DNA of 56,602 bases, the filler included, from Jimgerdemannia flammicorona (taxonomy: Eukaryota), in NCBI GenBank assembly GCA_003990765.1. It is 3 parts of 3 records of this genome, joined end to end, with 100 filler letters (N's around TTAATTAATTAA, not from the genome) between each part and the next. Parts side by side here need not be neighbours in the genome. Positions count along the whole stretch, not along the records: positions 37,804 to 56,602 come from RBNJ01002112.1; 2 more parts are not named here. The stretch is one strand, 5' to 3'. The stretch's first letter is position 1. Every line of letters starts with the position of its first letter. The notes under the pieces were generated by a model. It did no database searches. It saw only the letters and a program-made list of their open reading frames with translations, and had not been told where the DNA came from. Positions 18,803 through 52,939 of this stretch are shown piece by piece. The translations under genes were made by a program, and so were the position numbers.

Positions 18803-18902
18803 NNNNNNNNNNNNNNNNNNNNNNNNNNNNNNNNNNNNNNNNNNNNTTAATTAATTAANNNNNNNNNNNNNNNNNNNNNNNNNNNNNNNNNNNNNNNNNN
18901 NN
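18803..18902. other. Artificial contig linker N44-TTAATTAATTAA-N44
   Basis: Exactly 100 nt, with stop codons in all six frames. Identical to the linker at 37704-37803. Confidence 0.98.
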
Positions 18903-25100: not shown

Positions 25101-27944
25101 AAACTATTGATAGAGTAGGCTGAACTATTGGAAAACAAGAAGATATTATATTGAAAAGTCCAGTAGATTAGGTTAGAGATAGAGAAACTGCAAGATTTAC
25201 TATATAGAGAGGAGGATGTATAAGTAAAGGATATGGTAGCCCAGCTATAATGATAAGACCTGGAGAAAGGGAAATAGTTAACAAAGTTCTTATCTAGACT
25301 CCTTCAGATAAGGAGAGTAAGACAGCAATGAGATGGAGTATTGGATAAGATAGAGGAGCTGGTGGTAGAGACTCAGAATATCTTAAATCAGCTGAGTAAA
25401 TGCTGAAGGCTACTGTGGAGTAAGGAGAAAGATGGGGAGAATGAGTAGACCATTGCACAGTATCTGAAGTAGTAGTATCTAGATCTGACAGAGGGTCTGG
25501 GAGAGCTAGAGGTGCTGGTTTAAGGAGAGAAAATTCTCTGGATCTTAGCTATAACTAGACTCAGAATGACCCCTAGAGAGAATAGTCTGTCCTGAAATTT
25601 CTGAAAGAAGATGGCAGGAGTGGAGATTATATTGAAGGAGATGTTATAGATATGTGATATAGTTATTAGTTCTAGGGAGTGGATAGGGGAATAGTGTCTG
25701 AGACTTATAACTCTGTTGTATAAGGATAAGAAGAGAAGAAAGGAGTGGAAGAACTAGAGGCTAATCATGCTTCTGAATATAGATTATAAACTGGTTATGA
25801 AGATCTTAGTGACCAGATTATTAGAGGTGGCCCAGTGGGTATTGAGAGAGGAATAATAGAGTTTTGTTAGTAGCTAATTAATTAAAGATAGAACAGTATG
25901 GGTCTATAGAGTTATTGAAGGAGCTAAAGTTACAGGAGTGAATAGTTGTCTGATATTTCTGGATCAGAAGAAGATATATAATAGGGTGAGAAAGTGTGGT
26001 TAGAAGGGGTATTAAAGTATATTGAGGTCTCTCCAGACTTTCAACAGATCTTAGTCAGTTTATTAAAGGGAAGTTAAACAGTAATTCTTATAAATAGATA
26101 CTGAAAGATATCATTCTTTCTGAGGAGAGGGGCACTAGGTGATCTACTCTCTCTTATTCTTTATATTCTCTCTTTAGAGTCTTGGTTAGACAGAATTTGG
26201 TACAAGGTGGAGGAGTTAACTATTCTGAATAGGAATTGGAAGATGTAAGTCTTTATAGATAATATAATAGTTAGATTGAGCTCTGTAGAGGATTTGGCCA
26301 CTTTGAAGTAGGCAGTAGAATGATACAAAAAGTGCTTAAGGATTAAGCTTAACTGACACAAATGTGAGACTCTAGTGCTAGGTGGCAGAATAGTGAGAGG
26401 AGATATAATTAGAGTAATTATCTCAATAGGAGAGGTGGTCTGCTATTTGGAAATCTATTTCTCAGTATATGGCTCTCTGCTGCCTAAGGTATAGTAGAAG
26501 TAGAATATGATAGAGTAGAGAAATATACTTCTGAGCTAGTATGGCTGATAGATCTCTTTAGCAGAAAGAGTGATGGTGCTAAATATATACTGATTGTCTA
26601 AGCTATAGTAATCTGAGATATCACCTAGACTTTTCAGCTTAGATAGTAAAGAGACTTCTGAGAATAACCAGATCTTAGATTGAGACTGAACAATATAGTC
26701 AGATTGGATGAGATATATTGATATTACTAGTAGGCCAGGAGGGCTATAGTCTTGTAGATTTTACTAAGTACTTATATTACTTAAGGATATGGTGGCCAAA
26801 ATATACTAGTGAGCTGAGAGGTCAAGGCTGGATATCTCTTATATAGAGAGTGTGGTAGCTAAAATATACTAGTGAGCTAAGAGGTCAAGGTTGAGTACCT
26901 CTTATATAGAGAGTGTAGAAGGCATAATTCTCTTTCAGAGGAGCATCTGGAGACTTGCTCTCTCTGGTGACTCTTGAGGAGAGCTATAGAATATAGTTTA
27001 AGAGCTTCTGGTGAGGATGGTTAATGGGATCTATAAAATTAATATCTATTAGTATAGTGATAAGAGAGAGAGAAAATGGAAACCTAAGATATGAAGATAG
27101 AACTATCTTCTACTGGGGAGTACTCTAGTAGATGGTTTTTATCTTAAGGATGATATAGAGTATCTTTGAGAACAGAAGAGAGATTTATAGTCTGAGTCTT
27201 GGCAGAGAGTGGGAATTGGTAAAGAATAGAACTGGGCTAGTGTCTGATCATAAAGCAAAATAGTGACTCAGTGACTTTTACTCAAGTTTTGAGTAATGTG
27301 ATAGAGGCTTCTATAGTAAAATATAATGTTAAACTTTCAGTCAGAGTATCTGATAGATGGGAGTATCTTTGATTATAAGGAGTATTATAATATCAAGTAG
27401 GTAGAGGAGTAATATAGATCTTAGAATATTGGTTAAAAGAGTGTGAGATCTTAGCTGACTTCTGGTGAGTGATCAAAGATCAGCTAGGAGTATATCTATC
27501 TATATAGGTAGCAGGATACTCTTTGGGTACAGCTGGTGAGAAAAGTCAATAATGAATGGTTGTTGGTTAAATAGGTTCTTACTATATAGATTAGACTTTT
27601 TGGACATTTACTGTATATTTTTGAGGATAGCTAGAAGCTGGTAAGAGGGGTGTAAGTAGTAAGATAAGAGTAGTTAGTATTGGAGTTATTGAATGGGTGG
27701 CAGCAGAGATGGAAACTCAGAGGAGGTCTTCATCATAGACTTATTAAAAAGATATATACAAAGAGTAGAGAGAGGGTCTAGATATCTGAAAGAGTGGTTT
27801 TCTTTAGATAAAATAGAGAAGGAGGAGAGACTCTCTGTAGGATTGAGTAGGGGGGAGCTTCTTTATATTGATATAGTATAGAATAGTTGGTGATAAATGT
27901 AGGAGTCTAAGTGACTATAAAAAAAAAAAAAAAAAAAAAAAAAA
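22131..27944 (+). mobile_element. Near full-length, heavily mutated L1/Tx1-clade LINE (copy C)
   Basis: 5' end resembles copy D. ORF1 remnant, ORF2 ATG AAC AGT at 24162, FLDQKKIYNRV ~25955-25990, hairpin 27904-27916 and poly(A) to 27944. The 5' boundary is approximate and no TSD was resolved. Confidence 0.9.
26788..26918 (+). repeat. 63-bp tandem duplication inside LINE C ORF2
   Basis: TGGTGGCCAAAATATACTAGTGAGCTGAG.. (26790) repeats as TGGTAGCTAAAATATACTAGTGAGCTAAG.. (26853). The differences I can see are all transitions. Confidence 0.9.
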
Positions 27945-29765
27945 CTTTCAAAGCTTATATAAGAATTAGAAAATCTCATTACACAATTCTGATTTCCCTC
28001 AGAAGCTCCACCGGTCTCCTCTATTGAACTACTACTAAAACTAGTAACTATAGTACCAGAAGGACTAGAAATAGTCTCTTCAAGGATACTCAGATCTACT
28101 ATATTTTACCTAAGATCAATAATATTATATTTAAAATACTCAAGCATTCTAAGCTCTAGCAATAACTCAGAAAGTAAATTAGAACCAGAATCAGAACCAG
28201 AGTCAGAACTAAAAGACAGTGATAATAAAATAACTATTCTAATATCAATCTTTGCAGAATACTCAGAAGAAGATCTAAAGAATTCCTTAATAAGATTGAA
28301 GAAATAGCAGCTCTAAAGAATCTCTCTATCTAGAGAAAAGTTGCTATCTTCAAGGTCCAACTCAGAGAACTATTTAAGAGAATTTTTAACTAAGTAGCAA
28401 ATAATATACATTTAGACCTTAGAGTAGTCATCTATATAGTATCATTCTAGAAAGAAGAATATAGAGCTATGATCTACTGGCTTATCAAAAAATATACAAG
28501 AAATGAAATCTACTATAAGATTCAAGAGTTCATTATAGAGATGAAGATAAATCTCAGAGAATTACCTAAGATATTCTTTACTAGAATCTATAAAAGAATG
28601 TATATAGTCAGGTTCAATATCACTAACTAGAATATTATAGGTCCAATGATCTTTATAAATGAGATTTCCTCAAATATTATCTAATATATCTACACCTTAG
28701 GTATCAGAAGGTCTGAGAATTTTTTGATGTTAGATAAGAAATTACCTAGAGTGATCATAATAAGAAGAATGACAAAAAAGACCTTCTGGTCAAAATCCTC
28801 TAAGAACTCTTTCAAGAATATAGAAAATCAAAAGAAAGAAAGCCAACCAAGAAGTAAAAGAAAGAGAGAAACAAATCCAAGATCTTAACTCTAAGTTAGA
28901 CTGATTGGCTGGGCAAATAAAAAAACTCACTATATATAAAATTAGAGCTATCTATAAAATAATAGAGAATATACATTATAAAGAAACTATGACTATCTAC
29001 TCAGAGATAATAGAAGCTATCAGTCATAAGAAAAAAGAAGATATCTAGTCCAAGATAGAGCCCAAGTCTAATGCTTCTACTGCAGATAGTTTGGATACTA
29101 TACTACAGAATGTGATAATAGAAGAAGTGATCAAAGAAACTCAGAACTACTAAATTAAAAGAATACAACTCAGTACAAAAAGACTGAAGCTCACTCTGTT
29201 AAATATCTTAAAGAAGAAAGTAATAGTAAAGACTATAGTGATCTAGACCTACATATATCCAATCAAGGTCATTACTAGAAAACAGTCTATCTAGCTAAGA
29301 AAGAGAAGAGATCAGTAGAAAGACTGTTTAGAAATACTAACAAAAGAACTATCTAGAAAGAAAATGAAGAAGATGAAAAGGAGTAGGTTGAGATATCTCC
29401 CAGACTCTTTTATCTTTTGTATCTAAAATAAATAAACTACTACTGAAGGATGAAGAAATAGAGTAAAAAAAACAAGAGTCTATTATTCTGAAGCTCAAGA
29501 AGAAATATATTCCAAAGACTATATCTAGATATATAGTGATGAGCAAATGGGTAATAATGTTTTGAAAATTTTACTTTTATAAATAATATCTCTATAAATA
29601 ATTAATATAATGAAATGTAACTTATATTTTCCAAAAGCTCTTGCTTTTCTTTACCATTGGTTAAAATATCATTTTGATACCATTATTATTTAGCTTGCAA
29701 TAAATTTTTACATTAATACTATGTATTGTTACTCTTTTGGTTTTTCCACTGCCATTTTTGCTATT

Positions 29766-30780
29766 TTAATATTTCACATAATCTCCTTTGGTCTTATATA
29801 CAGCAGCAATGCGTCTTGGCATGCTCTCAATTAGGTTAATGCATTTTTCGGTTAATATGCCTTCCCATTCATACTCTATATGTTCCCAAAGCTCTTGCAT
29901 TCCTTTGGGTGATTCATCATACACATTGAGCAGTTGTTTGAGATGTCTCCAAAGATGTTCAATTGGATTAATATTGGGGGACTGTGCTGGCCAATCTAGC
30001 AAATAAATGGAATTGTTCTTGAACCAGTTGCACACCATCTTCGATGTATATTTTAGATCATTATCTTGTTGAAATATCACCTTCTTTTTGTCTATTCTAA
30101 AGAATTTAATAGATTCCTTTAATTCATCTTCGAGAATTTCCATATATAGCTCCAAATTCATACGCCCATTGATTCTGCATATATATCCAATGCTATAGTA
30201 ACTTATACATCCCCAAATCATAATCGATCTGCCACTGAATTTCAATGTTAGAGTTACATGATGTTGCTCAAGCTATACCCTGGGCCTCTTCTATGCCCAT
30301 TCTCATCCATCTGATCCCAAACAGTTGACTTTTGTTTTGTCTGAGAATATCACCCATTTCCAGTCATCTATGGTCCAGTCCTTGTATTTTTGCGAATTCA
30401 TACTGCGATTTGATATAGCATGGCAACAATAACAACTTTTTCTACTTCACAAATAACTTCAAACTGATACCTTTTAATGTTCGATATACTGTAGTTGCAC
30501 TCACACTGGCTCAGCCCTCTTCTTGAAGTATTTTTGTGACATTTGCAGTGGTTTCAACCTTACCACTGGACATCTGGTGGACAATCTATGATCTATCTTG
30601 AGTAGATAACTTTGGTGGATGACCACCTTTTAATATGTTTGTATCATCACAATGCTTGTTTTGGATGCGGCTAATTGAAGTAATGCTTATGCCAATTGCT
30701 TTGGCAATCTTTTTTGCCAACTGCCCAGAATTCAACCTATTGATGATAGTGTCATAAATCTCAATAGATAGCTTCTGCAT
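29766..30780 (-). pseudogene. Tc1-family DDE transposase, disrupted
   Basis: HTH N-terminus with GGHPPKLS. Motifs WTIDDWKWVIFSD, IMIWGC, FQQDND, WPAQSPNINPIEHLW. Several stops and a frameshift. Confidence 0.92.
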
Positions 30781-34427: not shown

Positions 34428-35960
34428 TATCACATAGAGGGTACTAAGTTCTATTAGAGTGTCTTTCCAAAATCTTATAGTCCTTAAACTTTTTATCTTT
34501 AAACTATTCTATTATCTCTTAGATTTACTTATATAGAATTGAGTAAAGAACTAGAACTCTTGTACACTTAAGTGGTTGGATACTTGAATGCTTAAGTGTT
34601 TTTAATACTGACTTTATTTCAAAGGAAATGAGAGAGATATTTATATAGAATATAATTCAATAATTATTAAGATATAAAGCTAAATATAAAATCTAGTAAC
34701 TAAATAAAATATTTGAATACAGGAAACTTTAGATTGTAAGTACAAATTTAAGTACCTATATAATTGATTATATAAGATCAGAATGCTGGAATAATTTCTG
34801 ATAGTTATATAAGGTCAGGATACTAGAATATTCAAGTATTTAAATAAATAGTTATATAAACAAATTATAGTAAAATATTCAGAATCCTGGGGACTTCATC
34901 TTCATCACTATCATTAAGACTAAAGGTTGGAGACAGAATATCTTCAAAGGAAATAGGGTCAGTAAATATTTCTGTTTTATTTGTTTTGTATATATCAATT
35001 AGTAAGATGATATTATTATCAGTAATATCATCATGATCAACAGCAGTGAGAAGGAGATCAGGGGCTCTCCAATCTATGACATTTTCCTCTATAAAGAAGA
35101 GAACAAAGATAGGATCTTGAGGGAGTCTGATCTGGATACTGAGGTCTTAGAATACTGAGATTAATCCTTGTAGAAATTGATCTAAATTGTTCTCAAGAAT
35201 GGGATTTCAGAACTTTTCTACCTTATCACTTTTGAGAGTAATAGTGGATTGGGCTCCTGTAATTACTATAGCTTCTAGTACATCTGTATAATAGGCTGAT
35301 AATTTCTTGAAGTCTAAAACTCTGGTATACTCTAAGTTAGAGATTGATCAAGATATATATCTGAAGATCTGATGGATCTTTTTGGCTACTCTCAATTTGC
35401 ATATATCTATAGGGGTGTCATCTTATATCTCTTGAGAACTGGTCTGAGGGAATTCCCAGCAGAGGAGGTTTCCTATTTCATATTCTTACCACATCCAGAG
35501 TTATTCAATAGTAGTAGTGATCTTTGTCTCCATTTTATAGTAGTAGAGGGTAAAGTGGTAAGAGTCATCAGTACTCAAGTTGAGGCTAGGAATCCTTCTA
35601 GTGCAGATCCTCATAGCTCTCCTGATGTCTTGGAACATTCTCTCTTAGACTGAGAAGCCTTGGTAGTTCCTGGATCTTGAGGTTTGATAAGTGGCAGGTA
35701 TTTTGTTTATAGTAAGTCTTTTGAACTATTTTGGGATTTTGTGAGTCTTATTTGAGTTGCTGCCACTGTGGTTTCTTAGTTCTTCTTTTATATTCCTTGA
35801 GATATCTATCTTATGGTCATCATGACTCATGGTTTATTATTATTACTCATCTTATAGTCTGGATGAGTATACTATATAATCTTCTTGAGTTCCAATCTGG
35901 TAACTTGTAAGGAAAGACTGTCTCCTATGATAATGTTACTATTCTAAGATCACTATTATA
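34428..35960 (-). mobile_element. Solo LTR, a diverged relative of the family III LTR, with 4-bp TSD ATAG
   Basis: Colinear with 38289-39865 and 51364-52939. ATAG at 34424-34427 and 35961-35964. Removing it restores the host RT codons TAT ATA GAT AAT (YIDN, from YIDD). Confidence 0.9.
34865..35701 (-). pseudogene. LTR-encoded ORF, solo-LTR copy (279 codons, start ATG>ATA)
   Basis: One frame from IPATYQTSRSRNYQG to ...FEDILSPTFSLNDSDEDEVPRILNILL*. Contains only in-frame indels and point stops. Confidence 0.75.
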
Positions 35961-37703: not shown

Positions 37704-37803
37704 NNNNNNNNNNNNNNNNNNNNNNNNNNNNNNNNNNNNNNNNNNNNTTAATTAATTAANNNNNNNNNNNNNNNNNNNNNNNNNNNNNNNNNNNNNNNNN
37801 NNN
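37704..37803. other. Artificial contig linker N44-TTAATTAATTAA-N44
   Basis: Identical to the linker at 18803-18902. Confidence 0.98.
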
Positions 37804-38288: not shown

Positions 38289-39865
38289 TGTTACATAGTG
38301 GTTGCTGAGTCTTTCAAATATATCAGATTCTCTTTAAGATGTATCTCTTAGACTAACTCAAGTTTGTTATAAGTAAGTTCTTATTAGAGTACCTTTCTAA
38401 GATCTTATAGTCCTCAAACTTCTTATCTTTAAACTATCTTATTATTTCTTTAGATTGCTTATAAGGAATTATATATATTGCACTAAGAGGAACTGACTTT
38501 ATTTCAGAGGAAATAAGAGGGATATTTATATAAAATATAATTTAATGATTACTAAGATATAAAGCTAAATATAAATTCCAATAACTAAATAAAAATACCA
38601 GGACATGGAAAACTGTCAAGTTCCAGGGTCAGCACAGATAGTTGCACAGGTTCAGGATACTGATATAATTTCAGTAATATAGAAAAATGGTGCTGAAATA
38701 ATTCTGAGTTATATCAAAATACCAGTGGAGGAATAGCTATTATATAGGAAAAGAGTGCTGGCATAATTCAGTATAACCAAGGAACTTCAGAGCAGAATGT
38801 TCAGGACTATAGGGGCTTTGTCTTCATCAGAGGTCAGGATGTCTTTGAAGGAGATAAGATCTACAAACATCTTGTCCATCTCATTATCATTATATAAATT
38901 ATACATTTCATATATATCATATGAGATAATATCATCACCAATGACATCATCACATTTGGTAGAGAAATTAGGGGCTCTCCAATCTATAAGATTCTCTTCT
39001 ACAAAATAGAGAACAAATGTGAAGTCTTGGAGAGGTCTAATCTAAATACTTGGATCTTGGAATACTGAGATCAATTCTTGTAGAAATTGATCTGAGTTGT
39101 TCTGGAGGATGAGATGCCAGAAGTCTTCTACTTTATCACTATTGAGGGTGATAGTAGACTGGGCTTCTGTAGCCACCCTGGCTTCTAGTATATTAATACA
39201 GTGGGCTGATAGATCTCTGAAGTCTGAGACTCTAACATACTCTAAGTTAGAGATTGACCATAGTGTATGTCTGAAGATCTGATAGATCTTCTTAGCTATT
39301 CTTACTTCATATATATCCATATAAGTGGTATCTTGTAACTCTTAGGGGCTAGCCTGTAGGAACTCCTGGTAGAGAAGGTTTTCTATTTCATACTTCTGCT
39401 ATATTTGGAGGTATTTAGTAGCAATGGTGATTCTTGTTTCTATTTCATAGTAGTAGAGGATAAAGTGATAAGGATCTGCAGTACTCAGGTTAAGGCTAGG
39501 AGTCCTTCTTATATAGGTCCTCATGGCTCTTCTGATGTCTTGGAATATCCTTTCTTCAACTAAGGTGCCTTAGTGGTTCCTTGACCTTGAGGTTTGGCAA
39601 GCAGTAGGTATTTTATTTATGGTAAGTCTTTGAGCTATTTTGGGATTGGTGGATCTTATTGGTTGCTGCTACTGCAGTTTCTTGATCCTTCTTTTATATT
39701 CCTCAAAATATCTATACTGTGATTACAATGACTACAATTGGTCATCATTACTCATCTTATAGCCTGAGTGGTCATGCCATATGATCTTCTTGTACTCTAA
39801 TCTGGTGGCTTGTAAGGAAAGGCTGTCTCTTGTACTGATGTCATCATTCTGATATCACTATTACA
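38289..39865 (-). repeat. 3' LTR of Gypsy III (1577 bp)
   Basis: TG...CA termini. Aligns end to end with 51364-52939, with mostly transition differences. Confidence 0.95.
38787..39611 (-). pseudogene. LTR-encoded ORF, 3' LTR copy (275 codons, start ATG>ATA)
   Basis: Same frame and length as the 5' LTR copy. The stops I read here correspond to CAA/CAG/TGG codons in the other copy. Confidence 0.8.
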
Positions 39866-39875
39866 TCTTCCTCCT
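39866..39875 (-). other. Polypurine tract AGGAGGAAGA
   Basis: Directly abuts the TG start of the 3' LTR on the minus strand. Confidence 0.85.
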
Positions 39876-40364
39876 AAATAAGGATCTCTTTGAACATCCT
39901 TATTCATTGGTCCAGTCCTGAAAAATTTATTGATTCCATAACCTCTGGCAAGGGGTCAAAAAGTAGTATTTATGGACTGATATCTTCCCTATATATTTTG
40001 GCATAATGGTGAAGAGTTGCTCCCTTCATATAGCATAAGGGCCTGATTTTAATCTTGACCAATTAGTTGATAGTTCAAACTCCTCTGGCTTTGAAAGTCT
40101 TATGAATGAGTAGTTGTTAGTGCCATATCTCTTAGAGAATGGTTCAGATAGATAGCCTGCTAGTCATGGGATATACTATTATAATTTTCAGACTAGAACC
40201 TCATGGATGGTCATTATGTTTTGCTTCTCTTATATAGATTTATGGTACTTCTTGAGTCTATTCCTATATACCATGATAGACATGGCTTTCACCAGTAACA
40301 TTCGGGTGACACAAGACTCAGACAACACTTTTTACAATGTTTTTGGTATCCGACGACTAACAAC

Positions 40365-42280
40365 ATGAATGGCAACGATCGAACTGGTGAGCATACTAGC
40401 CAGGGGGGTGACAGCACCTTTGGCTGGCAGCAGGTGGGGAGGAGGGGAGATGGTCTGGGGATGCCAGGGGCCTCGATGGCTAGCCAAGGCCCTGGTGGCG
40501 GAGGGAGGGGCAGTCTGAGGCAGAGAGGAGGGGAGAGATCAACCTTTGCTGACAAGATCAGAATGGGGAAGATGGCTTCTGGGCTAGATGGTTAGCTGGG
40601 CCTGGGGAAGGCACCGATGGCTACTGCTGGGGGTCAGGGATGTGTACCCCAGAGTGCTTCTAGTGGTAGGGAAGGGGCCGGAGTAGGGGCTGGAGATGTG
40701 ACTGCTGATGGGGCTGTGACTGGGGATCTGGCAAAAAATCCAGATATGATGGCAGTTGGTAATTCCAGACTTGGAGTGGGCATAAGGCCTGGGGACCTGG
40801 CTGATGGGTGATGGGCATGGTGTTGGCCCCGTTACTCAAGAAGTCGAGGTCAGAATTCGCAGTCATGATGTGCTTCTGGGGCTTGGCAGTGACAGCGAGG
40901 ATGATTTTGGGGCTGGTGGTACAGGAGGCTAAAGGAGCAGCGTCGGTGAAGTTCTTGAGAGGAAAGGAAGGGGTTGAGGTGGGGTTTGAGGAGGAAGATA
41001 CATTGTTGGCAGCCATGGAGAAGGGGGTGATGGTTGGTGGAGTTGTGGTCCCTATGGCCCAGTGTATGCGCTGAGACCCTCGAGTGGTGCAGTTGACAGT
41101 GTTGGACCTCCTGACTGTATCAAAGGAGAGGACCAGGGAGTTGGTTGTGGAGGTGGTCAAGGAGTATGGTGAGATTGTGGATATTAGGTTTAAGGTCTGG
41201 GAGGGAATGGAGCTTAGAACTGGTGATATCGATGTCAGGGTGAGGCTGGCTGGGAAGGAGAATATGGGGAAGTTGAGGGACTGGCCAGCGGCACTGTGGT
41301 GGGGACCGGTGGAGTGTAAGGTCACTAGGGTGAAGGGGACTCCGGAGGAGGAGGAGGACCTGTTGGAGGCTCTGAAGGACCTGGAAGAGGCAGTGGTGAG
41401 GAGGAGATTGGCCTGGAAGGAGTTTGAGGCCAGGATGGTGGTGGGGGAGGTGGATGGGAAGAGGATCCAGATGGAGAAGGGGGCCTGGGAAAAGATGCAG
41501 GGGAGGAGGATCCAGAAGGAGCTGTTGGCGAAGTTGGGTGGGGGTGGGGCTGGTAGAAGCTCAGGAGAGGGAGTTGTAGGGTCGCAGGAGAGTGCCTGGG
41601 CTGAGGGGGGAGAGATGGCCCAGGGCGAGGTTCAGATTGGAGGTGGGGCAGGGAGGGAGGGCATTTTGGAGGCGGATGCCAAAATGGGTGAGGGTGTATA
41701 CCCTCAGTATAGTGTCCTGGATGGGACAGAGGGGGAGGAGGAGTTGATGGATGTGCCGGATGAGGAGTGGGATGAGTCGGTGAGGAGGAGCACACTGGTG
41801 GACCCTGAGGTGGATGGAGGACAAATCGCTCAGGGGGCGGCAGAGACAGTTGATGAGGAGAAGTAGATGTGGAAGACCTTGAAAGGGGTAGCAGCTGAAG
41901 AGCTGGGGGGTGAGGACTTCAGGGTGTTGGAGGAGAAGTATTGGGAGGAGATCCTACAGGGGGGGGGGGTGCCGAGGAAGATGAGGAATGAGATCCTGGT
42001 GGTCCTCCTGGAGTCAGTTGAATATCAGGTTGATGATCAGCGAGAGGAGGAACTTAGGAGAATTGCGAGTGACAGAGCACTTTTCTTGTGGAATTCGAGG
42101 AAGGGACTGGAGAAGTGGCGCACTGTCTGCTTGGACTACAGGGCTGATATGGAGGAAGTGGACAGGGTGGAATGTCAGGAAATCTTGGGGGCACTGGATG
42201 CTCAGGATAATGCAGAGGGTGATTTGGAAGCTGAGCAGTGCTTGGATCTGGCGGGAGATGAGATGAGTATAGAATTGTAG
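40365..42280 (+). pseudogene. LINE ORF1 (~640 codons; a few stops and a frameshift near 40808)
   Basis: Chain of ORFs at 40365, 40617, 40808, 41084 and 41867. RRM-like core (VVKEYGEIVDIRF), homologous to the ORF1 remnants of copies A-C. Confidence 0.8.
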
Positions 42281-42311
42281 GGTGGGGTCTCTATTGCAAC
42301 ATTCCTTCAAT

Positions 42312-45300
42312 ATGAACAGTACAACTAGGATTTTCTTATTGAACATTAATGGGCTACGGGGGTCGGCTAGGAGGAAGTTTATATTTGGTTGGCTTAAGGG
42401 ACTGAATGCAGACCTCTTCTTACTGCAGGATATTCATTATGAGGCAGATGTGGACTTACAGGATTGGACTAAGGAATGGGGGGGTGCAGCAGTTTGGAGG
42501 GGGAAAGTGTGTATTCTTGTTTAGAAAGGGATGGGGGACATTGGGAACATTGGACATTGGAGGTCTCGGGTGGTGTGGGGAGTGTGGAAGAGGTCTGGAT
42601 GGGGCCCGCTGATGGTCGGGTCCTGTTACTACCCAGCTGAGAGAGGGGAGAGGGTGGAATGGATCCGCGGATTGAAAGAGGCTGGTGTGGTGGGTGAAGT
42701 TGGGTTAGACTGTATGGGGGGTGACTTTAACATGGTATGGGATAAGGAGTTGGACAGAACTGATAGAGGGAGAGGCGTGTGGGGTGAAAGTGGTGGGTTG
42801 GGTGACTGGTTGGAGATGGAGAGAGTGTGTTCTCTAGTAGACTCAGGAAGACATTTTTGGACTAATCGGTGGATGTATACCCACTGGGCGGCAGAACTGG
42901 GCTCCAGGATTAACTGGGTTCTAATGGCAGAGTGTTGGGGAACTGATGTCTGGTCGGCGCTGGAAGTCATATGGTGTCTGTGGTCTGATCACTGGGGGCT
43001 GCTTAGAGGGGAGAGGTTTGGGGGAAATGCGGATGGGCCGGGATATTGGCAACTAAATTCTTCCCTGTTGGAGGATAGGGTGTTGTGGGAGAGATGGGAA
43101 TCGGAGGTGGTTGGAAATATCGGCAGGTGGCAGGAACAAGGACTGGCGATTGGGGACCACTGGAGAAGGCTGAAGGTGAAGGCTCAGGAGTATTGGAGGG
43201 AAGTGGGGAAAGAGAAGTGTGCCCAGCGAAGGCGGCGGGTGCTGTGGGCTTCGCGGCATCTGGCAGCACTCATGGAGAGATGGGCAGGTGTGTTGGAGGA
43301 TGGGGCCATGACTGATTGGCATATTGCAAGGATCCGGCAGGAGGTGGAGGAGCTCAAAGAGGCATTATGCAGGGAGGAGGAGGAGCAGTTGTAGGGAATG
43401 GTGGCCCACCTGCAGTGGCAGAGGCTGGAGGAGGGGGAGAGGCCTACCAGATTCTTGTCATGGTTGTTACAAGCTCGACGAACGAGGCAACAGTGGGAGG
43501 GAGTTCTGGATGAGAATAGCGAGCTGGTGGTGGAGACTCCAGCAATTCTAGGTCTATTACGAACCCGTTGGGGGAATCTGTAGAGTGAGGAGGATGGGGG
43601 ATTGGATGCCCTGGACATTGAAAGACAGCTGGGGGATTGGCACCCGGACCCTGCAGTTGGACTCGGGGCATTGGGAGACCTGGTGAGTGGTGAGGAGATT
43701 TGCAGGGTTGTGGCCTCAATGAGTAAGGAGACAGCTCCAGGAGAGGATGGACTTCTCTGGGATTTTTGGCAGAAGATGACTGGGGTGGGTGAGGTGCTAG
43801 AGGAAATGACTGCTATGTGTGATGGAGTTCTTCGGTCTGGTGCCTGGATTGGGGGACAGTGCTTAGGGCTGGTCTCTTTGCTCTTTAAGGACAAGGGTAG
43901 GCAAGAGGACTGGAAGAACTGGTGGCCAATTATGCTGCTCGACATGGACTGCAAATTGGTGACGAAAATCTTAGTGATGAGGTTGCAAGGCATCGCTCAG
44001 CAGGTTCTTGGTGTGGAGCAATGTGGGTTTGTCAGTGGTCAGTTGATTCGAGATGAGACAGCCTGAGTTCATAGAGTGATTGAAGGTGCCCGGACAACAG
44101 GAGTGGATGGCTGATTGGTGTTTCTGGACCAAGAGAAGGCTTATGATAGAGTGCAGAGAATATGGCTGGAAGGAGTGCTGAAGTGGATTGGTATCTCACC
44201 AGGGGTCTGAAGTTCATTAATCAGCCTTCTAGAGGACAGTCAGGCAGCATTGGTCATCAATGGCCACAGGGGAGTGACTTTTCCTCTGGGGCATGGGGTA
44301 CCACAAGGGGACCCCTTGTCACCTATATTGTATGCTCTTTCCCTGGAGCCACTACTGGACAGGATTCAGCGTAAGATTGGAGGCTTGGACATTTTAGAGG
44401 TGAACTGGAAGGTGGGGGCCTTTGCTGATGATATGGTGGTCGGGCTGGACTTCTTGGGAGATGTGGGAGAGTTACAGAGGACTGTAGAATGGTATAAGTG
44501 GGGTTCTGGTACTAAACTTAACTGGCACAAATGTGAGATGCTGGTGCTGGGTGCTGGAATTGTTGGTGGCGATGTTATCGGGATAGTGGTACCAGCAGGG
44601 AAACCAGTGCACTACTTGGGGATCTACTTCTCAGTGTTCAGATCTCTTCTTCCCTGGGCATAGTGGGACCATAAACTTCTGGAGTGGGGTAATGCCTTGC
44701 TGTGATGGGGAGACTGGCATATGTCCCTTGCCAGAAGGGTGATGGTGTTGAATGTATACTGGATGCCAAAGCTGTGGTATGTTGGATATCATTTGGATTT
44801 CCCAACCTGGGTGGTTAAGGAGTTGTCGAAGATGGCGAGGTCATGGATCTAGGGAGGACGGCGAAGCCAGGTTGGTTGGGAGGTGCTCACACTGCCCTTG
44901 GAAAGAGGTGGGCTAGGCCTAGTGAACTTTACTAAGTGGCTTCTATGTCTGAGAGCCTGGTGGCTATGTAGGGTGAGCAAGCTCAGGGGGCAGGAGTGGG
45001 TGCCACTCATGCAGAGGTTGTGGGAGGTTCGGTACTCCCCACATGGTAGCTCCGGGGATCTGCTTGCAATGGTGGCCATGGAAGGGAGCAGGAAGATGCA
45101 GTTTACAGGCTTTTGGTGGGGGGTGGTAGATGGTGCTAAGAAGATTGGACTTCGGTGGTGAGGTGAAGAAGCTGAGGAGGTTTGGGGACCGTGGATGTGG
45201 TGGTGAGACAGGCTTCTATTGGGTGGTGTCCTGGTGGAGGACTTTCAGCTTGGCGAGGGCCTGGAGTGTTTGCAAGGCCTAGGTGGGGACCTGTGGCCAG

Positions 45301-45974
45301 AAGCCTAGCAGAGGGTTGGAATTGGAGAGGAGTGGAATTGGAATGGACTCTGGCTTTGGAGCAAATGGGTGTGGCAGTGGCTGCCCCCCAAGTTCTGGGT
45401 GGTGTGGTGGTGGGTCCTATGGTGGAATGTGATGTTGAACTATCGGTCTGGACACTTGGTGGATGGTGGGGTATTCGAGTGTGAGGATTGTTTTCATGTG
45501 GGTCAGGAGGGAGGAGTGATACAAACACCTGAACATTGGCTTGGGGAATGTGAGATTTTGGGGGAGTTTTGGAGAGGTGTTAGGAACAGGGTAGGGCTGG
45601 GTGCCATGGAGAGAGAGGTAGAGGGGAGGTGGGGAGAGCTCTGCCAGTGACTGGTGGGTGGAGTTGGGGACGAATAGCTGACCCTTAGTTGGGCTTTAGC
45701 TATGTGGGTTGGGCTGGCTGGACATTGGATTTATGTATTTGAGGAAGGGTGCCAGGTCGGGGTTGGTGACAAGATGGCCTGGTGGGAATGGTTGATGTTG
45801 GATATTTTGAATGGCTGGTGGCAGAGTTGGGGGATGGGTGGGGGGTACCGCAGGGGTCTGGTGCAGTGTATCACCCAGAAGAGTGGTGGGAGGGTTCAGG
45901 TAGTTGGTAATTGAGTGGTGCTCGAGCAGGGAGAGGTTGAGGGAGGGGGTTTGGGCCCCTGGGGCATTGGTTGA
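42312..45974 (+). pseudogene. LINE ORF2: APE endonuclease + reverse transcriptase + C-terminal Cys/His motif (~1220 codons, internal stops)
   Basis: LNINGL, LLQD, GGDFN, SDH, PGYWQLNSSLL, APGEDGL, LDQEKAYDRV, GVPQGDPLSP, FADD, YLGI, GGLGL and CEDC..TPEHWLGEC all lie in one frame. Confidence 0.95.
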
Positions 45975-48748
45975 GGGTAGGGATGACATTGTATTGTTTA
46001 TATATATTATAGACTTCAGTAATAAAGGGCAGTCTAAGAGACTATAAAAAAAAAAAAAAAAAAAAAAATGTACCATAATAGATAGTATAGTCTCTGAGAT
46101 TTTTTTAAGCCAGAAGATAGTTCTCTTGATATCTTGTATATAGAAGAGTCCTTCCTATTTAGGCTCCAGTTTTCATGACCATGAGGCTTCTACCATATTT
46201 TGATATAGTAGGACCTTTTCTCTGATTTGGATGGGTTCTAGGGTCTTGTGATTCTTTTCCGCATTCTTCCTTATTAGTACTTATAACTTGATGATATAAT
46301 CTTCAGCCTTCTTTCTGATTTAGTATAGCCTCTGGATTTCTGTATCAACTCATCTCCAAGTTAGGTCTAGATTTATAACTGAGGTTTCATCAGAATCTTC
46401 TTTTCTAAAGAGCAGTTCTCTTAGAGTAAAGTGTGTACTTTGTGACTATATATCTCATAGGATAGAGAGAATAGTTGAGAGGTAGTTATCCCAATTCTCA
46501 TATGTGTCTGAGATCTTTACCAGGATGTTCTTGAGGGTCTTATTGGTTCTCTCTGTCTGTCCATTTCCTTGAGGGTGATATATGGTGGTCTTGATGTACT
46601 GAATCTTATATTTCTAATATATTATCTTATAGAATCCATTGACAAATTCTGTGCTGTAGTCTGTTGTGATTTGCTTTGATATCTTGTAGTGGCAGATGAT
46701 TTCTTAGTGCAGGAAGTCAGCTATAGAGAGAGCATTGGCTTCTTGTAATGCTCCTGCTTCTATCTATTTAGTAAAGAGGTCTACAATAATTACATATAAT
46801 ATAGCAGTTTCCTGATAGTATTACTGGTAGTGGCCTAATGATATCTATTACAATGTGGTGGAAGGGGATAGGCTCAATTCTTCATGACCTGAGTACTTGG
46901 TCTTGCTGATCTTGTTTCTGTTTTTGGCACTTGTCACACTCTTTGACAAATTGGTGCAGGTCTTCTTCTATCTCGGGCCACTACATAGTTCTTCTTGTCT
47001 TGTCATATATATTAGTTCCTTCTAGATATCCTTGTTTGTGTACTTTCTTCATTACTTGATACTTCTTGTATTTGGATATTACAAGCTTTCCTCCTTTTCT
47101 GAGTATAGTGTTGTCTAGTTCAAACTGTTTCTAAGTCTAGTTGATAATGGTGATTATTCAGGGTTTGAGGTGGTTGGACATCTTTTGCTGCCCAAGGTAG
47201 CTGATTAATCCATAGTATAACTCCTTATTCATATTGAATAGTCTTGATGGAGGTGTTTTGGAGTGTTCTTGAGAGTGTATCAGCATTGATATTGATTTTT
47301 TCTGAGCAGTACTTAATAGTACAGTCATACTCTTATAGTCTGTAGATCCATCTGGCATATATTTCTTTGGAGTTCAGAATGTGGAATAGCCAGGCAAGAG
47401 TGGAATGGTCTGTTTGAATGGTGAAGTATTTTCCAGCTAGGTAATAGTGGAACTTGTCTACTGTCCAAACTACTGCTAAGTATTTGAGCTTACATGACTC
47501 ATAGTTCTGTTCTGCTTTACAAGTACCTTGGCTTATATAGGAGATGATATATTCATGTCTATCTTTCTTCTGAGCTAGGACTGCTCCAAGTCCTATAGTA
47601 CTTGCATCTGTCTGCAAGATGAATTCTAGGTTCCAATCTGGTCTTCTGAGGATAGGTGCTTGGGTCAACCTGGTTTTGAGTTTATTGAAGGTTTCTTGGT
47701 ATTTCTTGATCTATTTGAATTTGGTTTCCTTTTTCAGTAACTTATAGATAGGTACTATAATGTTAGAGTATCCTTTGATGAATTTTCTGTAGTAGGAGGC
47801 TAGTCCAAAAAAGGCATAGACTTCTGTAGTTGTTCTGGATCTCAGATAGACTGCAACAGTCTCAATCTTTATGAGGTCTGTGTAGATTCCAGTCTGATTG
47901 ATGAGGTATTCTAGGTAGATGATTTTCTGAGCCACAAACTTATATTTCTTGGACTTGATATAGAGGTCATACTCCTTGAGCTTCTTGAGGGCTAGCTGTA
48001 TGTAGTTGACATATTCCCATACAGTGTTGCTGAAGATGATTACATCATCAACATAGACAAAGAGCTATTTTCCAATCTCATTACTGAAGACTCTGTTCAT
48101 CATTTACTGAAAACTTGCTGGGGCATTGCACATTCCAAATGGCATTCACAGATAGAAATAGGTGGCATTAAGTATGATGAAGGCTGATTTCTCACTGGCA
48201 TCTTAAGTGAGACTAATCTGATAGAAGCCTGAGAATAGATCTAAGGTAGTGTAGTATTTGGCTTCACTTCTAAGAGTAGTAAGGATTTCTTGAATATTTG
48301 GCAAAGGCTGCCTATTCTTCTTGGTAATTGTATTGAGTTTTCTGTAGTCAATACAGAGTCTTAGCACAAACTCTCCAGGCTTGCTTTCTTTCTTTGAGAC
48401 AAGGACAATGGGTGAAGCCCAGAGACTGATAGCTTGCTTGATAATTCCAGCTTCTTTCATTTCCTTGAGTTCTGCTCACAGTCATTCTCTATAGGCAGGT
48501 GGTATAGATCTGGCTTTCTGGTAGATGGGCTTGGTATTGCCAGTATCAACTTCATGATAGTACTTAGGTTCTTGATTGTAGATATCCCTGAAGTCTGTAG
48601 TAAGTACTCCTTCATTCTGGTGCAGGATCTTAAGAAGTCCTTCTTCTAGAGGAAAGTTTTCTCCAATGGTATATGTGTGCTTGTTCTGGTCCTTATCTTT
48701 CTTATATTCAAGTTCAGTAATCTTGGTGGTAGCATAGGCTCCTCTTCT

Positions 48749-49162
48749 GGTAGATCCAAAGCCTTGTTCTTCTCTCTTAGTCTTGATGAGTTTGATGACT
48801 TCCATGATCTTGGGCTTCTTGATTTCATAGATCAGTATCTGGCCAATCCTGTCATACTTCTTGACTTTGAATAGGGTAGTGGGGTTGTAATTCCTGACTA
48901 TAAGAAAGATCTTGCCAGTGTAATCAGAGTCAATTACTCCTCCTTCAACTGAGATTTCACTTTTGGCCAGACTGCTCCTGGTTTTGATAATTTCAGCATA
49001 GTTCTCTGACAGCTTGACTCCAATTCCAGTGCCAAGTAGTGTAGTGGTCTGTGGTTTGAGAGTAGCATCTTGAATGCTGGTAAGATCTATTCCTATGGCT
49101 CCTTCAGTCTTATATTCTGGAATCTTGGCTTTAGAGTGAAACTTCTTAACCATGAGGGTGAT
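48749..49162 (-). pseudogene. dUTPase domain of Gypsy III pol, between protease and RT
   Basis: All five trimeric dUTPase motifs in an open frame: AIGIDL, RSSLA, GGVIDSDYTG, DRIGQ, REEQGFGST. Confidence 0.95.
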
Positions 49163-51342
49163 GTCTGGTTCTTGTTTCTCCTCATCATCACTGTCAGCTT
49201 GAAGCTCTGGGGGCTGGTCATTTTCTTCAGCTTTCCTTTTTACTTCAGTGGCTTCTTGCTCATGTTTCTGTTGGCAGATTTTCCTAACTTCACTGATATA
49301 GGACCAGTAGTCATTCAGGTGTTCAGAGTAGTACATCCTAGTATTATGGGGGCATCTTCCTTGAGGGGTATAGCCATCAATGATCTTGTTGTACCACTGC
49401 TCATCTATGAGCTTGGGTGTCTTGTTCTTATTCTTTTTCACTAAGTATATGAAGACTTCTGTGTCCTCTTCATCTCCTTTCTCTATGTCTGGTAGAACTT
49501 CTTTGTAGACATTATACCTTTCTTCCTCTATAGTTGATCTGCATCTTCTGGGCATTGAGATCAATGATGGCCTTAGCCTTGTGAAGTCATTAGTTACCAA
49601 TGAGGATATTATAGTTGGTGGCACTTATAATAATCAAATTTACTGGGATGGTAGCTTCTTCTATCTTGATAGAGACTTTTTGGATTTTGTCAAGGGGGGT
49701 AGCTTATATACTATCTGCTGTGACATAGACCATTTTGGTAGACTCTTCAATGTCTCAGCCTAGGTGGTCAATTGTCTTCTTACTTATGAAGCATCCTCTA
49801 GCACCAGTATTAATAATGGCATCAAAGATACAATCTTCGATCTGATATAAAGTATAGACTGATATCTTGTGCTGATCTTTGGATTCTTCATCTGAGTCTT
49901 CTTGATCATCTTCCTGTACATTGTGAGCTTTTACAATCTTGTACTCTTGATTCTTAACAGTAGTTATAAGTTCTACTCTTACATAACTGCTATCTGAAGG
50001 CAGGGACTTCAGCTAGCTGTCCAAAAGTAGCATTGACCTTCTATTCCTTGAGGTCCTTGTAGATATCATACTGGTGGATCTTGATCTTATGCAGCTTCTA
50101 TTCCTTCTTATCTTCACTTTCTCCTGAGACTGGAGTAGTGCCTTCAATGATTTGGCAGGCAGCTTCATCTAACTCTATGTCTTAATTAATCTTCTCAGGT
50201 TGGGTCTTACTTTGAATAGTGACAGCTGGGGTCTTCTTTGGTCTTCCAACTGGCTTGCTGTTGCCCTTCTTATTATAGGGCTTGGACCAGGTCCTGGTAC
50301 CTTCAGTAGTAGGGTAGAATTCGAGCTCCTTGTAGTATTCTTCATTATCAGTATCACTAATATCCTCAATGACTACTGCATTAGTTTGTTCTCTAGTTCT
50401 GCTAGTATTGCTTGGTTGGGCTTTATCTTATTTTGGTCATGCAACTCTTTGCATAGTGGCCTTCTTCTCTATATCTGAAGTATGTAATATTATGTTCTTC
50501 TGTAGCAGCTACAAATCTCTGCACTGGTCTCCTATTGGTACTTCAGACTTCTCTAACAACATTACTAAGATGTGCAGTCATCTTGGTGAACTGCTTGCAA
50601 GTTCCTCTACTGGGTCAGCTTTGGCTATCTTGGGGGTAAGTGGAGATGGTTGTCTGTTTATAACTGTAGTAGATATGATACTAGTTGGCTTTGATGACTC
50701 TATGTTGATACTAGTTATTTTCTTTATTGAGTATTTGGCAGGATATCTGGCAGTCCAATATCTCTGTATAAAGACCACTTTTTGATCAAGAGTCAGTACA
50801 GTTGAGGTAGACTGGATTGTTAGAGCAATTTCAAGATGAATTTCTTTAAGAAAGGTTGAATTTGCTATTTGTTCCTTGATGTGGTCATTATAGCTACCCA
50901 AGACAATCTGGTAACAGATTTGGATATAGAATGAGTTGGGATCTTCACTGAGTCTCTGGCAGATAGTATTGAGTTGATCCTTGAAAGCTTGTTTGATCTC
51001 TTCAGTATAGTATGTTGTTCTGAAAAAGGCCTTTATGTTGGCAAGGTTGGCTGCACCAGCATCAGCAATAGTGGCTGTATTGAACTTGTCTCTGACAGGT
51101 CCTCTGAGGCTGACTGATAGAAGGACCAATTGTACATCCACATTGAGGGCTCATATAGTGGCAAATTGTTCAAAGTCTTCAATAAAGGTCAGGATTGACT
51201 CTTTAGTAGTATATCCACAGAATGTAGAGAGACATATTTCTATTTTATCTTGAATTCTTGCAGAGGTGACTCTTGTAGTTAGAGTAGTTGTTGTGGTGGT
51301 TGTTCATTTTTCAGCTTGAAAGTGAGAGATTCATCTTAAATC

Positions 51343-51360
51343 ATCAGCCAATAGATACCA
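51343..51360 (-). other. Putative primer-binding site TGGTATCTATTGGCTGAT
   Basis: TGG begins 3 nt inside the 5' LTR boundary. The priming tRNA cannot be identified because of mutation. Confidence 0.55.
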
Positions 51361-51593
51361 AGTTATTATGTAGTAATCACTGAGTCCTTTAAATATATCA
51401 GATTCTCTTCAAGGTGTATCTCTTAGACTAACTCAAGTTTGTAATAAGCAAGTTCTTATTGGAGTGCCTTTCCAAGGTCTTATAGTCCTCAAACTTCTTA
51501 TCTTTAAACAGTCTTGTTATCTCTTTAGATTACTTACAAGAAAGTGTGTGTAAGTGAACTTGACTGACTTTATTTTAGAAGAAATAAGAAGGG

Positions 51594-51601
51594 TATTTAT
51601 A
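51594..51601 (-). promoter_or_regulatory. Likely canonical LTR TATA box (TATAAATA) with AATAAA ~20 nt downstream
   Basis: Also present at 38523-38530 and 34638-34645. AATAAA at 51569-51574, 38498-38503 and 34613-34618. Confidence 0.55.
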
Positions 51602-51857
51602 CAAAATATAATTCAATGATTGCTAAGATATAAAGCTAAATATAAATTCCAATAATCAAATAAAAATACCAGAATATGGAAAACTGTTAAGTTTCAGAGT
51701 TAGTACAGATGGTTGCACAGGTTCAGAATACTGGTATAATTTTGGTGATATAGAAAAATAGTACTGGAATAATTCTGAGTTATATCAGAATACTGGTGGA
51801 GAAACAGCTGTTACATAGAAAAAGAGTGCTGGCATAATTCAGTATAACTAAGGGACT

Positions 51858-52682
51858 TTAGAGCAGAATATTCAGAACTATAAGAGCTTCATCTTCATCA
51901 GAGGTCAGGATATCTTCAAAGGAGATGAGATCTGCAAACATCTCATCTGTCTCATCATCATCATATAGATCATGTATTTCACATATGTTATATGAGATGA
52001 CATCATCACTGATAATATTATCACATTTGGCAGGGAAATTGAGGGCTCTCCAATCTATGAGATTCTCTTCCACAAAATAGAGAACAAATGTGGAGTCTTA
52101 AGGAGGTCTAACCTGGATGCTTGGGTCTTAGAATACTGAGATTAATCCTTACAGGAATTGATCTGGATTGTCCTAGAGGATGGGATACCAGAAGTCTTCT
52201 ACTTTATTACTATTAAGAGTGATAGTAGACTGGGCTTTTATAGCTACTCTGGCTTTTAGTACATTGATATAGTGGACTGATAGGTTTCTGAAGTCTGAGA
52301 CTCTAATATACTCCAAGTTGGGAATTGACCATGATACATGTCTGAAGATCTGATGGATCTTCTTAGCTATTCTTACTTCATATATATCTATGGAAGTGGT
52401 ATCTTGTAACTCTTGGGGGCTGGCCTGTGGGAACTCCTGGCAGAGAAGGTTTCCTATTTTATACTCCTGCCATATTTGGAGGTATTCAGTAGTAATGGTG
52501 ATCCTTATTTCCATTTTATGGCAGTAGAGAATAAAGTGATAAGGATCTGCAATACCTAGGTTGAGGCTAGGAGTCCTTCTTATACAGGTCCTCATGGCTC
52601 TTCTGATGTCTTGGAATATCCTTTCTTCAACTGAGGTACCTTGGTGGTTCCTTGACCTTGAGGTTTGACAAGCAGCAGGCAT
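51858..52682 (-). pseudogene. LTR-encoded ORF, 5' LTR copy (ATG intact, 274 aa, 4 internal stops)
   Basis: ORF-track entries 52173-52682 and 51858-52073 are in the same frame. The four stops between them are CAG/CAA in the 3' LTR. Confidence 0.82.
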
Positions 52683-52761
52683 TTCATTTATAGTAAGTCT
52701 TTGAGCTATTATGGGATTGGTGGATCTTATTGGTTACTGCTACTGCAGTTCTTTGATCCTT

Positions 52762-52769
52762 CTTTTATA
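52762..52769 (-). promoter_or_regulatory. TATA box (TATAAAAG) ~80 nt upstream of the LTR ORF
   Basis: Conserved at 39691-39698 and 35785-35792 at nearly the same spacing from the ORF start. Confidence 0.55.
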
Positions 52770-52939
52770 TTCCTCAAGATACCCATACTATGGTTACAAT
52801 AACTCACAATTGGTTACCATTACTTATCTTGTAGCCTGGGTGATCATACTGTATAATCTTCTTATACTTTGATCTGATGGCTTGTAAGAAAAAAAGCTAT
52901 CTCTTATGCTGATATCATTATTCTAAGATCACCATTACA

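Follow-up and report, generated by a model that had tools for sequence, protein, structure and literature searches.

A probable accessory gene within the long terminal repeats of a Gypsy retrotransposon family in the fungus Jimgerdemannia flammicorona

Analysis of a 56,602-nucleotide (nt) stretch of DNA from the fungus Jimgerdemannia flammicorona (GenBank assembly GCA_003990765.1), referred to here as the window, revealed an open reading frame (ORF) in the long terminal repeats (LTRs) of a Ty3/Gypsy-type retrotransposon. We propose that every LTR in this Gypsy family contains an entire protein gene within its own limits, for which a mode of expression and a function are also put forward, and we assign this reading as a whole a probability of about 60%. 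On comparative evidence the frame is a real coding sequence, kept open by purifying selection in diverged lineages. Its product represents a new protein family of about 270-340 codons, predicted to be mostly helical.

The window consists of three contigs, joined by runs of N at 18803-18902 and 37704-37803. The third contig contains a direct repeat of ~1.58 kb at 51364-52939 and 38289-39865, and the features from LTR to LTR are all on the minus strand, except for a nested element of the long interspersed nuclear element (LINE) type. The 5' LTR (51364..52939, minus strand) is 1,576 nt long, starts with TGTAATGG and ends with ...CATAATA. Alignment with the 3' LTR (38289..39865, minus strand, 1,577 nt) showed 86% identity, with differences that are nearly all transitions (BLAST within the window, 86.0% over 1,565 nt). 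A diverged lone LTR of ~1,533 nt (34428..35960, minus strand) aligned at 71% identity to the 5' LTR (BLAST, 71.4% over 1,415 nt, plus a separate 88-nt piece). No internal element sequence was found beside it, and the N runs place it on the second contig, in agreement with its earlier description as a solo LTR on another contig.

All three LTR copies begin with TG; the 3' copy closes with CA and the other two with TA, corresponding to a C>T change. A polypurine tract (AGGAGGAAGA, 39866..39875, minus strand), read from the sequence, adjoins the 3' LTR directly upstream. The direct terminal repeats, the TG..CA ends and the polypurine tract before the 3' LTR are those of a Ty3/Gypsy element. We place the ORF inside the LTR because the same sequence is present at both ends of an element that has this polypurine tract, these ends, and a protease (PR), dUTPase, reverse transcriptase (RT), RNase H and integrase (IN) between them.

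The ORF spans nt 258-1082 of the 1,576-nt 5' LTR, with the start ATG at LTR nt 258 and the stop codon at LTR nt 1080-1082. Translation of this copy (copy 1, 51858..52682, minus strand) gave 274 codons plus the stop, with the ATG kept and four internal stops, at codons 170 (TAG), 178, 185 and 195 (all TAA). The original prediction had stated that these four stops are Q in the 3' LTR, and that the stops of the 3' LTR are in turn sense codons in the 5' LTR. The translations agree: copy 2 (3' LTR, 38787..39611, minus strand), in which ATA replaces the ATG, reads Q at all four positions, and its own four internal stops are Q, W, Q and Q in copy 1. Copy 3 in the lone LTR (34865..35701, minus strand) has ATA at the start and seven stops; its start position, frame and stop position are all kept, as had been claimed for it.

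Intact relatives have Q wherever copy 1 has one of its four stops. Across the three copies, 14 of the 15 internal stops are aligned with a Q or W in P0002, an intact metagenomic relative, and are therefore CAA, CAG and TGG codons struck by transition. The one exceptional stop lies opposite C in P0002 and Y in copy 1. All three copies in the window are pseudogenes.

In the aligned LTR pair the frame runs for 293 codons without a stop common to both copies, and in the remaining five frames the longest runs without a shared stop are 46-80 codons. A run of this length greatly exceeds what chance would give in DNA with 35% G+C. Comparison of copy 1 with copy 3 showed four insertions or deletions (indels) in the ORF, of +9, -15, -3 and +21 nt (net +12, the figure given in the original prediction), all of them multiples of three. 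They are confined to the C-terminal part, and the 649-nt N-terminal domain has none. Over the ~740 nt of flanking LTR compared with the lone LTR there are 11 indels, of 2, 2, 1 and 1 nt upstream of the ORF and 34, 18, 4, 12, 1, 31 and 18 nt downstream. Frame-breaking lengths thus account for 0/4 indels in the ORF and 8/11 in the flanking LTR.

Standard (Nei-Gojobori) dN/dS, which had been suggested earlier as a check, proved uninformative: nearly all local changes are transitions, so that the ratio is biased, and the 5'/3' LTR pair, expected to decay without selection, already gives 0.35. It was set aside, and transversions alone were used for the ratio of nonsynonymous to synonymous differences per site (pN/pS). 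Transversion-only pN/pS was 0.36-0.48 (p 2e-5 to 2e-4) against L001, an intact metagenomic locus described below, in three comparisons that share one branch and are hence non-independent. For the N-terminal domain against the lone LTR it was 0.30-0.34 (p 0.007-0.012). The transversion-based values therefore lie at 0.30-0.48, and not near 1.

Relatives of the protein were sought in metagenomic sequence. When the translation, with its stops masked as X, was used for a word-indexed search among 5.8 billion proteins, four relatives were obtained at 59-69% identity, one of which is a complete 271-amino-acid (aa) protein beginning MPA. An exhaustive HMMER search of 1.84 billion representatives gave five matches, with identity down to 29-39%, and a profile search of the 5.8 billion proteins gave 11 relatives, including open proteins of 325 and 342 aa. 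The full-length open forms (271, 325 and 342 aa) share 33-37% identity between clades, and the most distant relatives are 27-37% identical; overall, intact relatives of 271-342 aa span 27-69%. All 11 relatives derive from ENA or JGI metagenomes, on contigs 600-4,848 nt long, and fall into clusters with 1-6 members; there are no annotated genomes among their sources. P0010 is on the 4,848-nt contig, and the contigs behind P0003 and P0006 are 1,625 and 2,375 nt long.

The blocks common to the family are W(Q/H)EYEI, AKK(I/V)HQ(I/V)FRH, WNP(I/L)LxDxPDQ, F(Q/E)GPxI and PYF. Beyond these blocks the tail is acidic and variable; it contains DLI(S/T)F and ends in LNF(L/T)(L/I). Every full-length member begins MPA or MPP, and the A-rich context of the ATG is conserved; the shorter relatives, begun at internal Met codons, are probably truncated gene calls.

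L001 is a metagenome contig of 1,345 nt with an intact 323-codon ORF (69-1040) that is 51% identical to the window copy. It is homologous to the LTR from the first TATA motif (TATA1, below) through the U5-like block. It was the only locus found in the second of two metagenome scans for further DNA loci; the first gave 285 pattern matches, none of which was confirmed. Scans of viral contigs and genome contigs for the DNA of the relatives yielded no locus. A tblastn search of the window with seven family proteins matched only the three LTR copies. No fused forms of 600-2000 aa were present among 8000 candidates scored, which is weak evidence.

Several observations, in addition to the bias of the Nei-Gojobori ratio and the shared branch of the L001 comparisons, weigh against the proposal. 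All three window copies are dead, and no present function is shown in the window. Gene calling selects open frames, and the database proteins are therefore open by construction. Among the relatives, the DNA context is known for L001 alone, and neither end of its contig reaches beyond the LTR; that the ORF resides in LTRs elsewhere than in the window is therefore deduced from homology, with no element seen. Finally, the non-coding LTR upstream is conserved as much as the N-terminal domain of the ORF: identity to the lone LTR is 75.5% for the ORF and 75.5% for the upstream non-coding LTR, and transversion divergence is 3.5% for the N-terminal domain and 3.2% upstream. Substitution rates alone therefore fail to separate the ORF from the LTR sequence on its 5' side. 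Conservation is lower in the tail, the downstream LTR and the U5-like part, whose transversion divergences from the lone LTR are 7%, 11.3% and 11.4%.

These observations could be taken to mean that the ORF is a relic, a once-coding or captured segment without a present protein role, in an LTR conserved as cis-acting DNA or RNA, the open relatives being a product of ascertainment. We consider this very improbable. Conservation of cis-acting elements would not yield what was found: frames of 271-342 codons that remain open at 27-37% amino-acid identity with shared motifs, ORF indels that are all in frame, and an excess of synonymous transversions. The case for selection is built on these same three features, namely open frames at deep divergence, in-frame indels and excess synonymous changes.

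The damage to the window copies was examined by comparing the two LTRs of the element, with the copy bearing C or G at each site counted as the older state. The 5' and 3' LTRs differ by 209 transitions and 10 transversions, and within the ORF by 112 transitions and one transversion. Changes were found at 140 of 236 CpA sites (59%), 44 of 162 CpC sites (27%) and 25 of 235 CpT sites (11%); at most 20 of the 140 changed CpA sites may originally have been CpG. The changes of this type are split about equally between the LTR copies (98 and 111). C>T/G>A transitions in repeated DNA with a preference for CpA are the signature of fungal repeat-induced point mutation (RIP), and it was RIP-like C>T/G>A hypermutation, acting once the copies had inserted, that inactivated them. 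The observed/expected ratio of CpG in the Gypsy internal region (46200-51300) is 0.02, compared with 0.52 on contig 1, and the near-absence of CpG in the repeats indicates CpG loss besides the CpA>TpA changes. The selected accessory protein of the original prediction is accordingly upheld in part: the relatives, the in-frame indels and pN/pS support coding under purifying selection, whereas the window copies are RIP-like-mutated pseudogenes.

A look for sequencing runs with the family listed a single one, a soil-metagenome DNA run sharing 5% of words, and no RNA run. From this DNA run, 975 short contigs aligned to the LTR, 73 of them at ≥99% identity. Where these contigs differ from the window, they mostly have G or C in place of A or T (A>G 47, T>C 27; in the reverse direction, G>A 24, C>T 9). 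Position 52100, the first base of stop codon 195, is G at a depth of 330/334, and the soil-metagenome copies therefore carry CAA where copy 1 has this stop. At 80% likeness, the ORF tail and the sequence downstream of it (51772-52041) are almost uncovered by the soil contigs. In the metagenome protein P0015, C, H or W is found where its closest kin P0013 has R, as in the window copies. This pattern, read from residues, would fit the same type of hypermutation in still-open members.

The organization of the LTR was examined for signals that might serve the ORF. A sigma-70 promoter and terminator scan was set aside as inapplicable to a eukaryote. TATA1 (TATAAAAG, LTR nt 171-178, 52762..52769, minus strand) is common to the three window LTRs and L001, and starts 87 nt before the ATG; across 4/4 LTRs the distance from TATA1 to the ATG is 65-90 nt. 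A second TATA motif (TATA2, TATAAATA, LTR nt 1339-1346, 51594..51601, minus strand), invariant in the four aligned LTRs, starts 257 nt past the stop codon. In the alignment it is followed by AATAAA, a hexamer resembling a poly(A) signal (LTR nt 1366-1371, 51569..51574, minus strand), which is 27 nt after the start of TATA2; the spacing is 26-27 nt, also in L001. TATA1, TATA2, AATAAA and the TCAGT that follows it are kept in 4/4 LTRs, and the non-coding sequence between these motifs is poorly conserved.

We lean slightly towards an LTR with two promoters and the ORF in U3, the unique region upstream of the transcription start. TATA2, with AATAAA 26-27 nt behind it, would mark the border between U3 and the repeated region R, which would place the ORF in U3. 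The hexamer would lie at the expected start site, so that the genomic RNA would lack the poly(A) signal at its 5' end. U3, containing the ORF, would measure ~1.37 kb, R would be short, and the unique 5' region U5 would be ~190 nt. TATA1 would drive an unspliced mRNA of ~1.2 kb, begun and polyadenylated inside a single LTR. The 5' LTR, the 3' LTR and even solo LTRs could then each express the protein. A further point against the proposal is that the use of the promoters and of the poly(A) signal is read from motifs alone.

Two other relations of the ORF to the genomic RNA were considered. In yeast Ty1 the gag (TYA) reading frame begins in the LTR. An extension of gag of this kind was rejected here, because the stop codon ~495 nt before the LTR end is conserved in all copies. 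Alternatively, the genomic RNA could start from TATA1, with the ORF in an R region of ~1.2 kb, as a first cistron before gag that is repeated at the 3' end, and with TATA2 lacking a promoter role. The plant Ogre elements, in which ORF1 lies upstream of gag, offer a comparable arrangement. The maintenance of TATA1 65-90 nt before the ATG in all four LTRs agrees with a long R, as do the conserved A-rich ATG context and the MPA/MPP start of all full-length members. However, genomic RNA could then be made only if the AATAAA of the 5' LTR, at ~1.2 kb from the cap, were passed over, and an invariant TATA2 at a fixed 26-27 nt from AATAAA, as seen in 4/4 LTRs including the distant L001, is the classic layout for excluding the hexamer from the 5' RNA end; these arguments are drawn from motifs. 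We regard this arrangement as rather unlikely, and retain the two-promoter LTR as the working model.

The protein gave no match to a characterized domain in Pfam, PDB, BFVD or ESM Atlas searches. No Pfam family was obtained at E≤0.001; a Pfam search with 10 family members at E≤1 gave only ATG5_HBR, at 0.088 in 2/10, which was taken as noise. A PDB sequence profile search had no matches at E≤1. In the ESM Atlas the best feature score was 0.83 with a structure template-modelling (TM) score ≤0.33, and no family was indicated. Similarity to the gag of the element itself was absent (E 6.5).

Structure prediction for residues 1-225 of L001, from 14 sequences, reached a predicted local distance difference test (pLDDT) score of 73.5 and a predicted TM score (pTM) of 0.63. 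The core of the model (residues 60-160), with pLDDT of about 88-96, is confidently helical, and a small part forms a beta hairpin. Foldseek of this model against the PDB and BFVD gave nothing at E≤0.001. Exhaustive structural alignment gave a best Z of 3.8. Several ParB, SopB, VirB and KorB DNA-binding domains were among the top rows, and six of the top 30 were helix-turn-helix domains of the ParB/SopB/KorB type (model residues ~69-154, Z 2.8-3.8, root-mean-square deviation 3.8-4.8), but the ParB/SopB/KorB scores (best Z 3.4-3.8) are within the chance range for helical models. An earlier fold model, of P0002 (pLDDT 52), was discarded as meaningless, its best Z of 4.4 having been obtained on one long helix. 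The lack of a Pfam, PDB-sequence or fold match behind the proposed function, and the chance-level ParB-type scores, join the points that count against our proposal.

The charge distribution along the protein is uneven. The first 45 residues have a net charge of +5 to +8 in 4/5 members and +1 in P0010, and the tail, of 59-126 residues, varies in length and has a net charge of -15 to -26. From this charge distribution we suggest, as a conjecture of fairly low probability, that the protein may be a nuclear regulator, either of the transcription of its own element or of host silencing, in keeping with the transactivator or anti-silencing role of the original prediction. The basic N-terminal segment and helical core would bind nucleic acid or chromatin, and the variable acidic tail, with its conserved DLISF..D and LNFLL, would be an effector or activation region. 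The broadest form of this idea is a "complex" Gypsy lineage, in which the LTR would be a promoter-ORF-poly(A) cassette for a nuclear transactivator or anti-silencing protein of new fold, made from 5', 3' and solo LTRs equally; scattered solo LTRs would thus go on providing a factor by which the family evades genome defence. In this extended form the idea is doubtful.

As a matter of conjecture, a basic segment, a folded core and an acidic, hydrophobic tail would suit an RNA-handling adaptor almost as well as a regulator. Such a factor, which might be an export adaptor like Rev or Rem, a packaging protein or a chaperone, could bind RNA through its arginine-rich N-terminus and use the leucine-rich C-terminal LNFLL as an export or interaction signal. 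The basic, arginine-rich N-terminus and the presence of the hydrophobic C-terminal motif in most full-length members are in its favour, and complex retroviruses have Rev- or Rem-like genes at their 3' end. On the other side, Rev-like proteins do not typically have a long acidic tail, the Pfam and fold searches revealed no likeness to any RNA-binding family, and none was seen to the gag of the element. We judge an RNA-handling role instead of one in transcription or silencing to be quite unlikely, and keep the nuclear regulator as the preferred function.

The internal coding region of the element (46455..51150, minus strand) was delimited by reading frames and domain matches. It comprises a gag-like ORF (50578-51150), a protease-like stretch (49755-50012, identified by sequence motif only, without a Pfam match), a dUTPase ORF (48482-49624; PF00692, 2.9e-27), RT (47711-48475; RVT_1), RNase H (47333-47710; RT_RNaseH_2, 5e-31) and, 3' of RNase H, an integrase fragment (46455-46613) with a weak rve_3 match (E 0.0094), all on the minus strand. 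Between the two LTRs the order is thus the PR-RT-RNase H-IN of Ty3/Gypsy elements, with dUTPase preceding RT, and the element is of Gypsy type because RT precedes IN. A candidate primer-binding site (TTGGTATCTATTGG, 51348..51361, minus strand), which contains TGG and begins 2 nt past the 5' LTR, was noted by inspection of what is a hypermutated sequence. The full element has no target-site duplication, the flanks ATAT and CTAG being different; recombination between copies or later mutation may account for its absence. The lone LTR has only a possible 4-nt target-site duplication, CTAT.

The 3' part of the Gypsy element is split by the nested non-LTR, LINE-like element (approximately 40000..46075, plus strand; RVT_1 2.3e-14 and a weak endonuclease match). 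Its sense strand is unusually G-rich, with a G+C content of 0.53 and a GC skew of +0.45 to +0.46. Skews of +0.38 to +0.49 and -0.41 to -0.52 were observed at 22001-28000 and 10001-14000, and these stretches may be further copies, in either orientation. The AT-rich second contig contains a fragment of a Tc1/mariner-type transposase (29766-30272, minus strand; DDE_3, 9.9e-08). On contig 1 there are two host-gene fragments, of the TFB6 (TFIIH subunit) family (5254-5739, minus strand; 4.5e-06) and of a CorA-type Mg2+ transporter (6516-7076, minus strand; 1.3e-10). Both fragments, like the CpA>TpA hypermutation, agree with a fungal host; an Atlas search with the CorA fragment gave bacterial CorA clusters only, which is uninformative. 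Arrays of repeats with a 9-nt period occupy 15100-16320, with open frames of 363-400 codons on the minus strand that are rich in L, P, C, H and A; the array is probably a minisatellite and not a gene.

Accessory genes located in an LTR or overlapping it are seen as typical of retroviruses, and the LTRs of retrotransposons are taken to be control sequence without coding function. If the proposal is true, a "complex" organization arose also among retrotransposons outside animals, and protein could still be encoded by solo LTRs, which are usually seen as inert remnants. Because repeats are masked, the family stays out of annotation, and only 11 members, all metagenomic, were present among 5.8 billion proteins. 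If the protein counteracts silencing or a RIP-type defence, it would open a direct way to study how fungal transposons and genome defence oppose each other.

The closest known arrangements are those of vertebrate retroviruses. In mouse mammary tumour virus (MMTV) the superantigen ORF, sag, is in the U3 of the LTR, and nef of the human and simian immunodeficiency viruses (HIV/SIV) and the bel/tas genes of foamy viruses overlap U3. The accessory genes of MMTV and foamy viruses are expressed from promoters other than the main one. What the LTR ORF shares with sag, nef and bel/tas is the position of an accessory gene, within the LTR or overlapping it and thus 3'-terminal in the genomic RNA. The LTR ORF differs in belonging to a Gypsy (Metaviridae-type) element and in lying entirely inside the LTR, where its placement in U3 is deduced. 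Kinship with Nef, SAg or Bel/Tas was not indicated by any Pfam, PDB or BFVD match at E≤0.001; distant kinship is possible. The proposed promoters have a parallel in the barley element BARE1, where two TATA boxes in the LTR give rise to distinct RNA classes. The likeness consists in two conserved TATA boxes in one long LTR, with promoter use in the window LTR being predicted. BARE1, unlike the window LTR, is not known to have an ORF between its TATA boxes.

Full-text searches of the open-access literature gave no description of an ORF inside a retrotransposon LTR. This agrees with the earlier statement that LTR-encoded proteins are not standard for Ty3/Gypsy elements, for which no LTR-borne ORF was found in the same literature. 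The accessible portions of PMC10787394, PMC11302176 and PMC4031123 likewise contain no such case. What is new here is an accessory gene within the LTR of a Gypsy element, and a new protein family.

The backbone of the window element has precedents. A dUTPase between PR and RT is reported in LTR elements of fungi and rotifers (PMC6431247), for fungal Gypsy elements with citation of Riccioni et al. 2008 (see also PMC2864245). The fungal dUTPase Gypsy elements, as far as these excerpts describe them, have the same gag, PR, dUTPase, RT, RNase H and IN backbone as the window element. An ORF inside the LTR is not mentioned in the available part of PMC6431247, and the LTR ORF is the new part here.

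Additional genes are also carried by other LTR retrotransposons. According to the sections available to us, ORFs have been captured downstream of pol in plant and rotifer LTR retrotransposons (PMC6431247), and Boty/BcGypsy1 of Botrytis has an extra ORF, brtn, in its internal region (bioRxiv 10.1101/2021.04.13.439636). No sequence relation of the LTR ORF to other extra ORFs was detected, as Pfam and both protein-database searches gave its own family only. As described in these sources, brtn and the post-pol ORFs resemble the LTR ORF in being genes borne by such elements besides gag-pol, with an unknown or accessory function. They lie between the LTRs, however, whereas the window ORF lies within the LTR, and is therefore duplicated at both ends of the element and left behind in solo LTRs.

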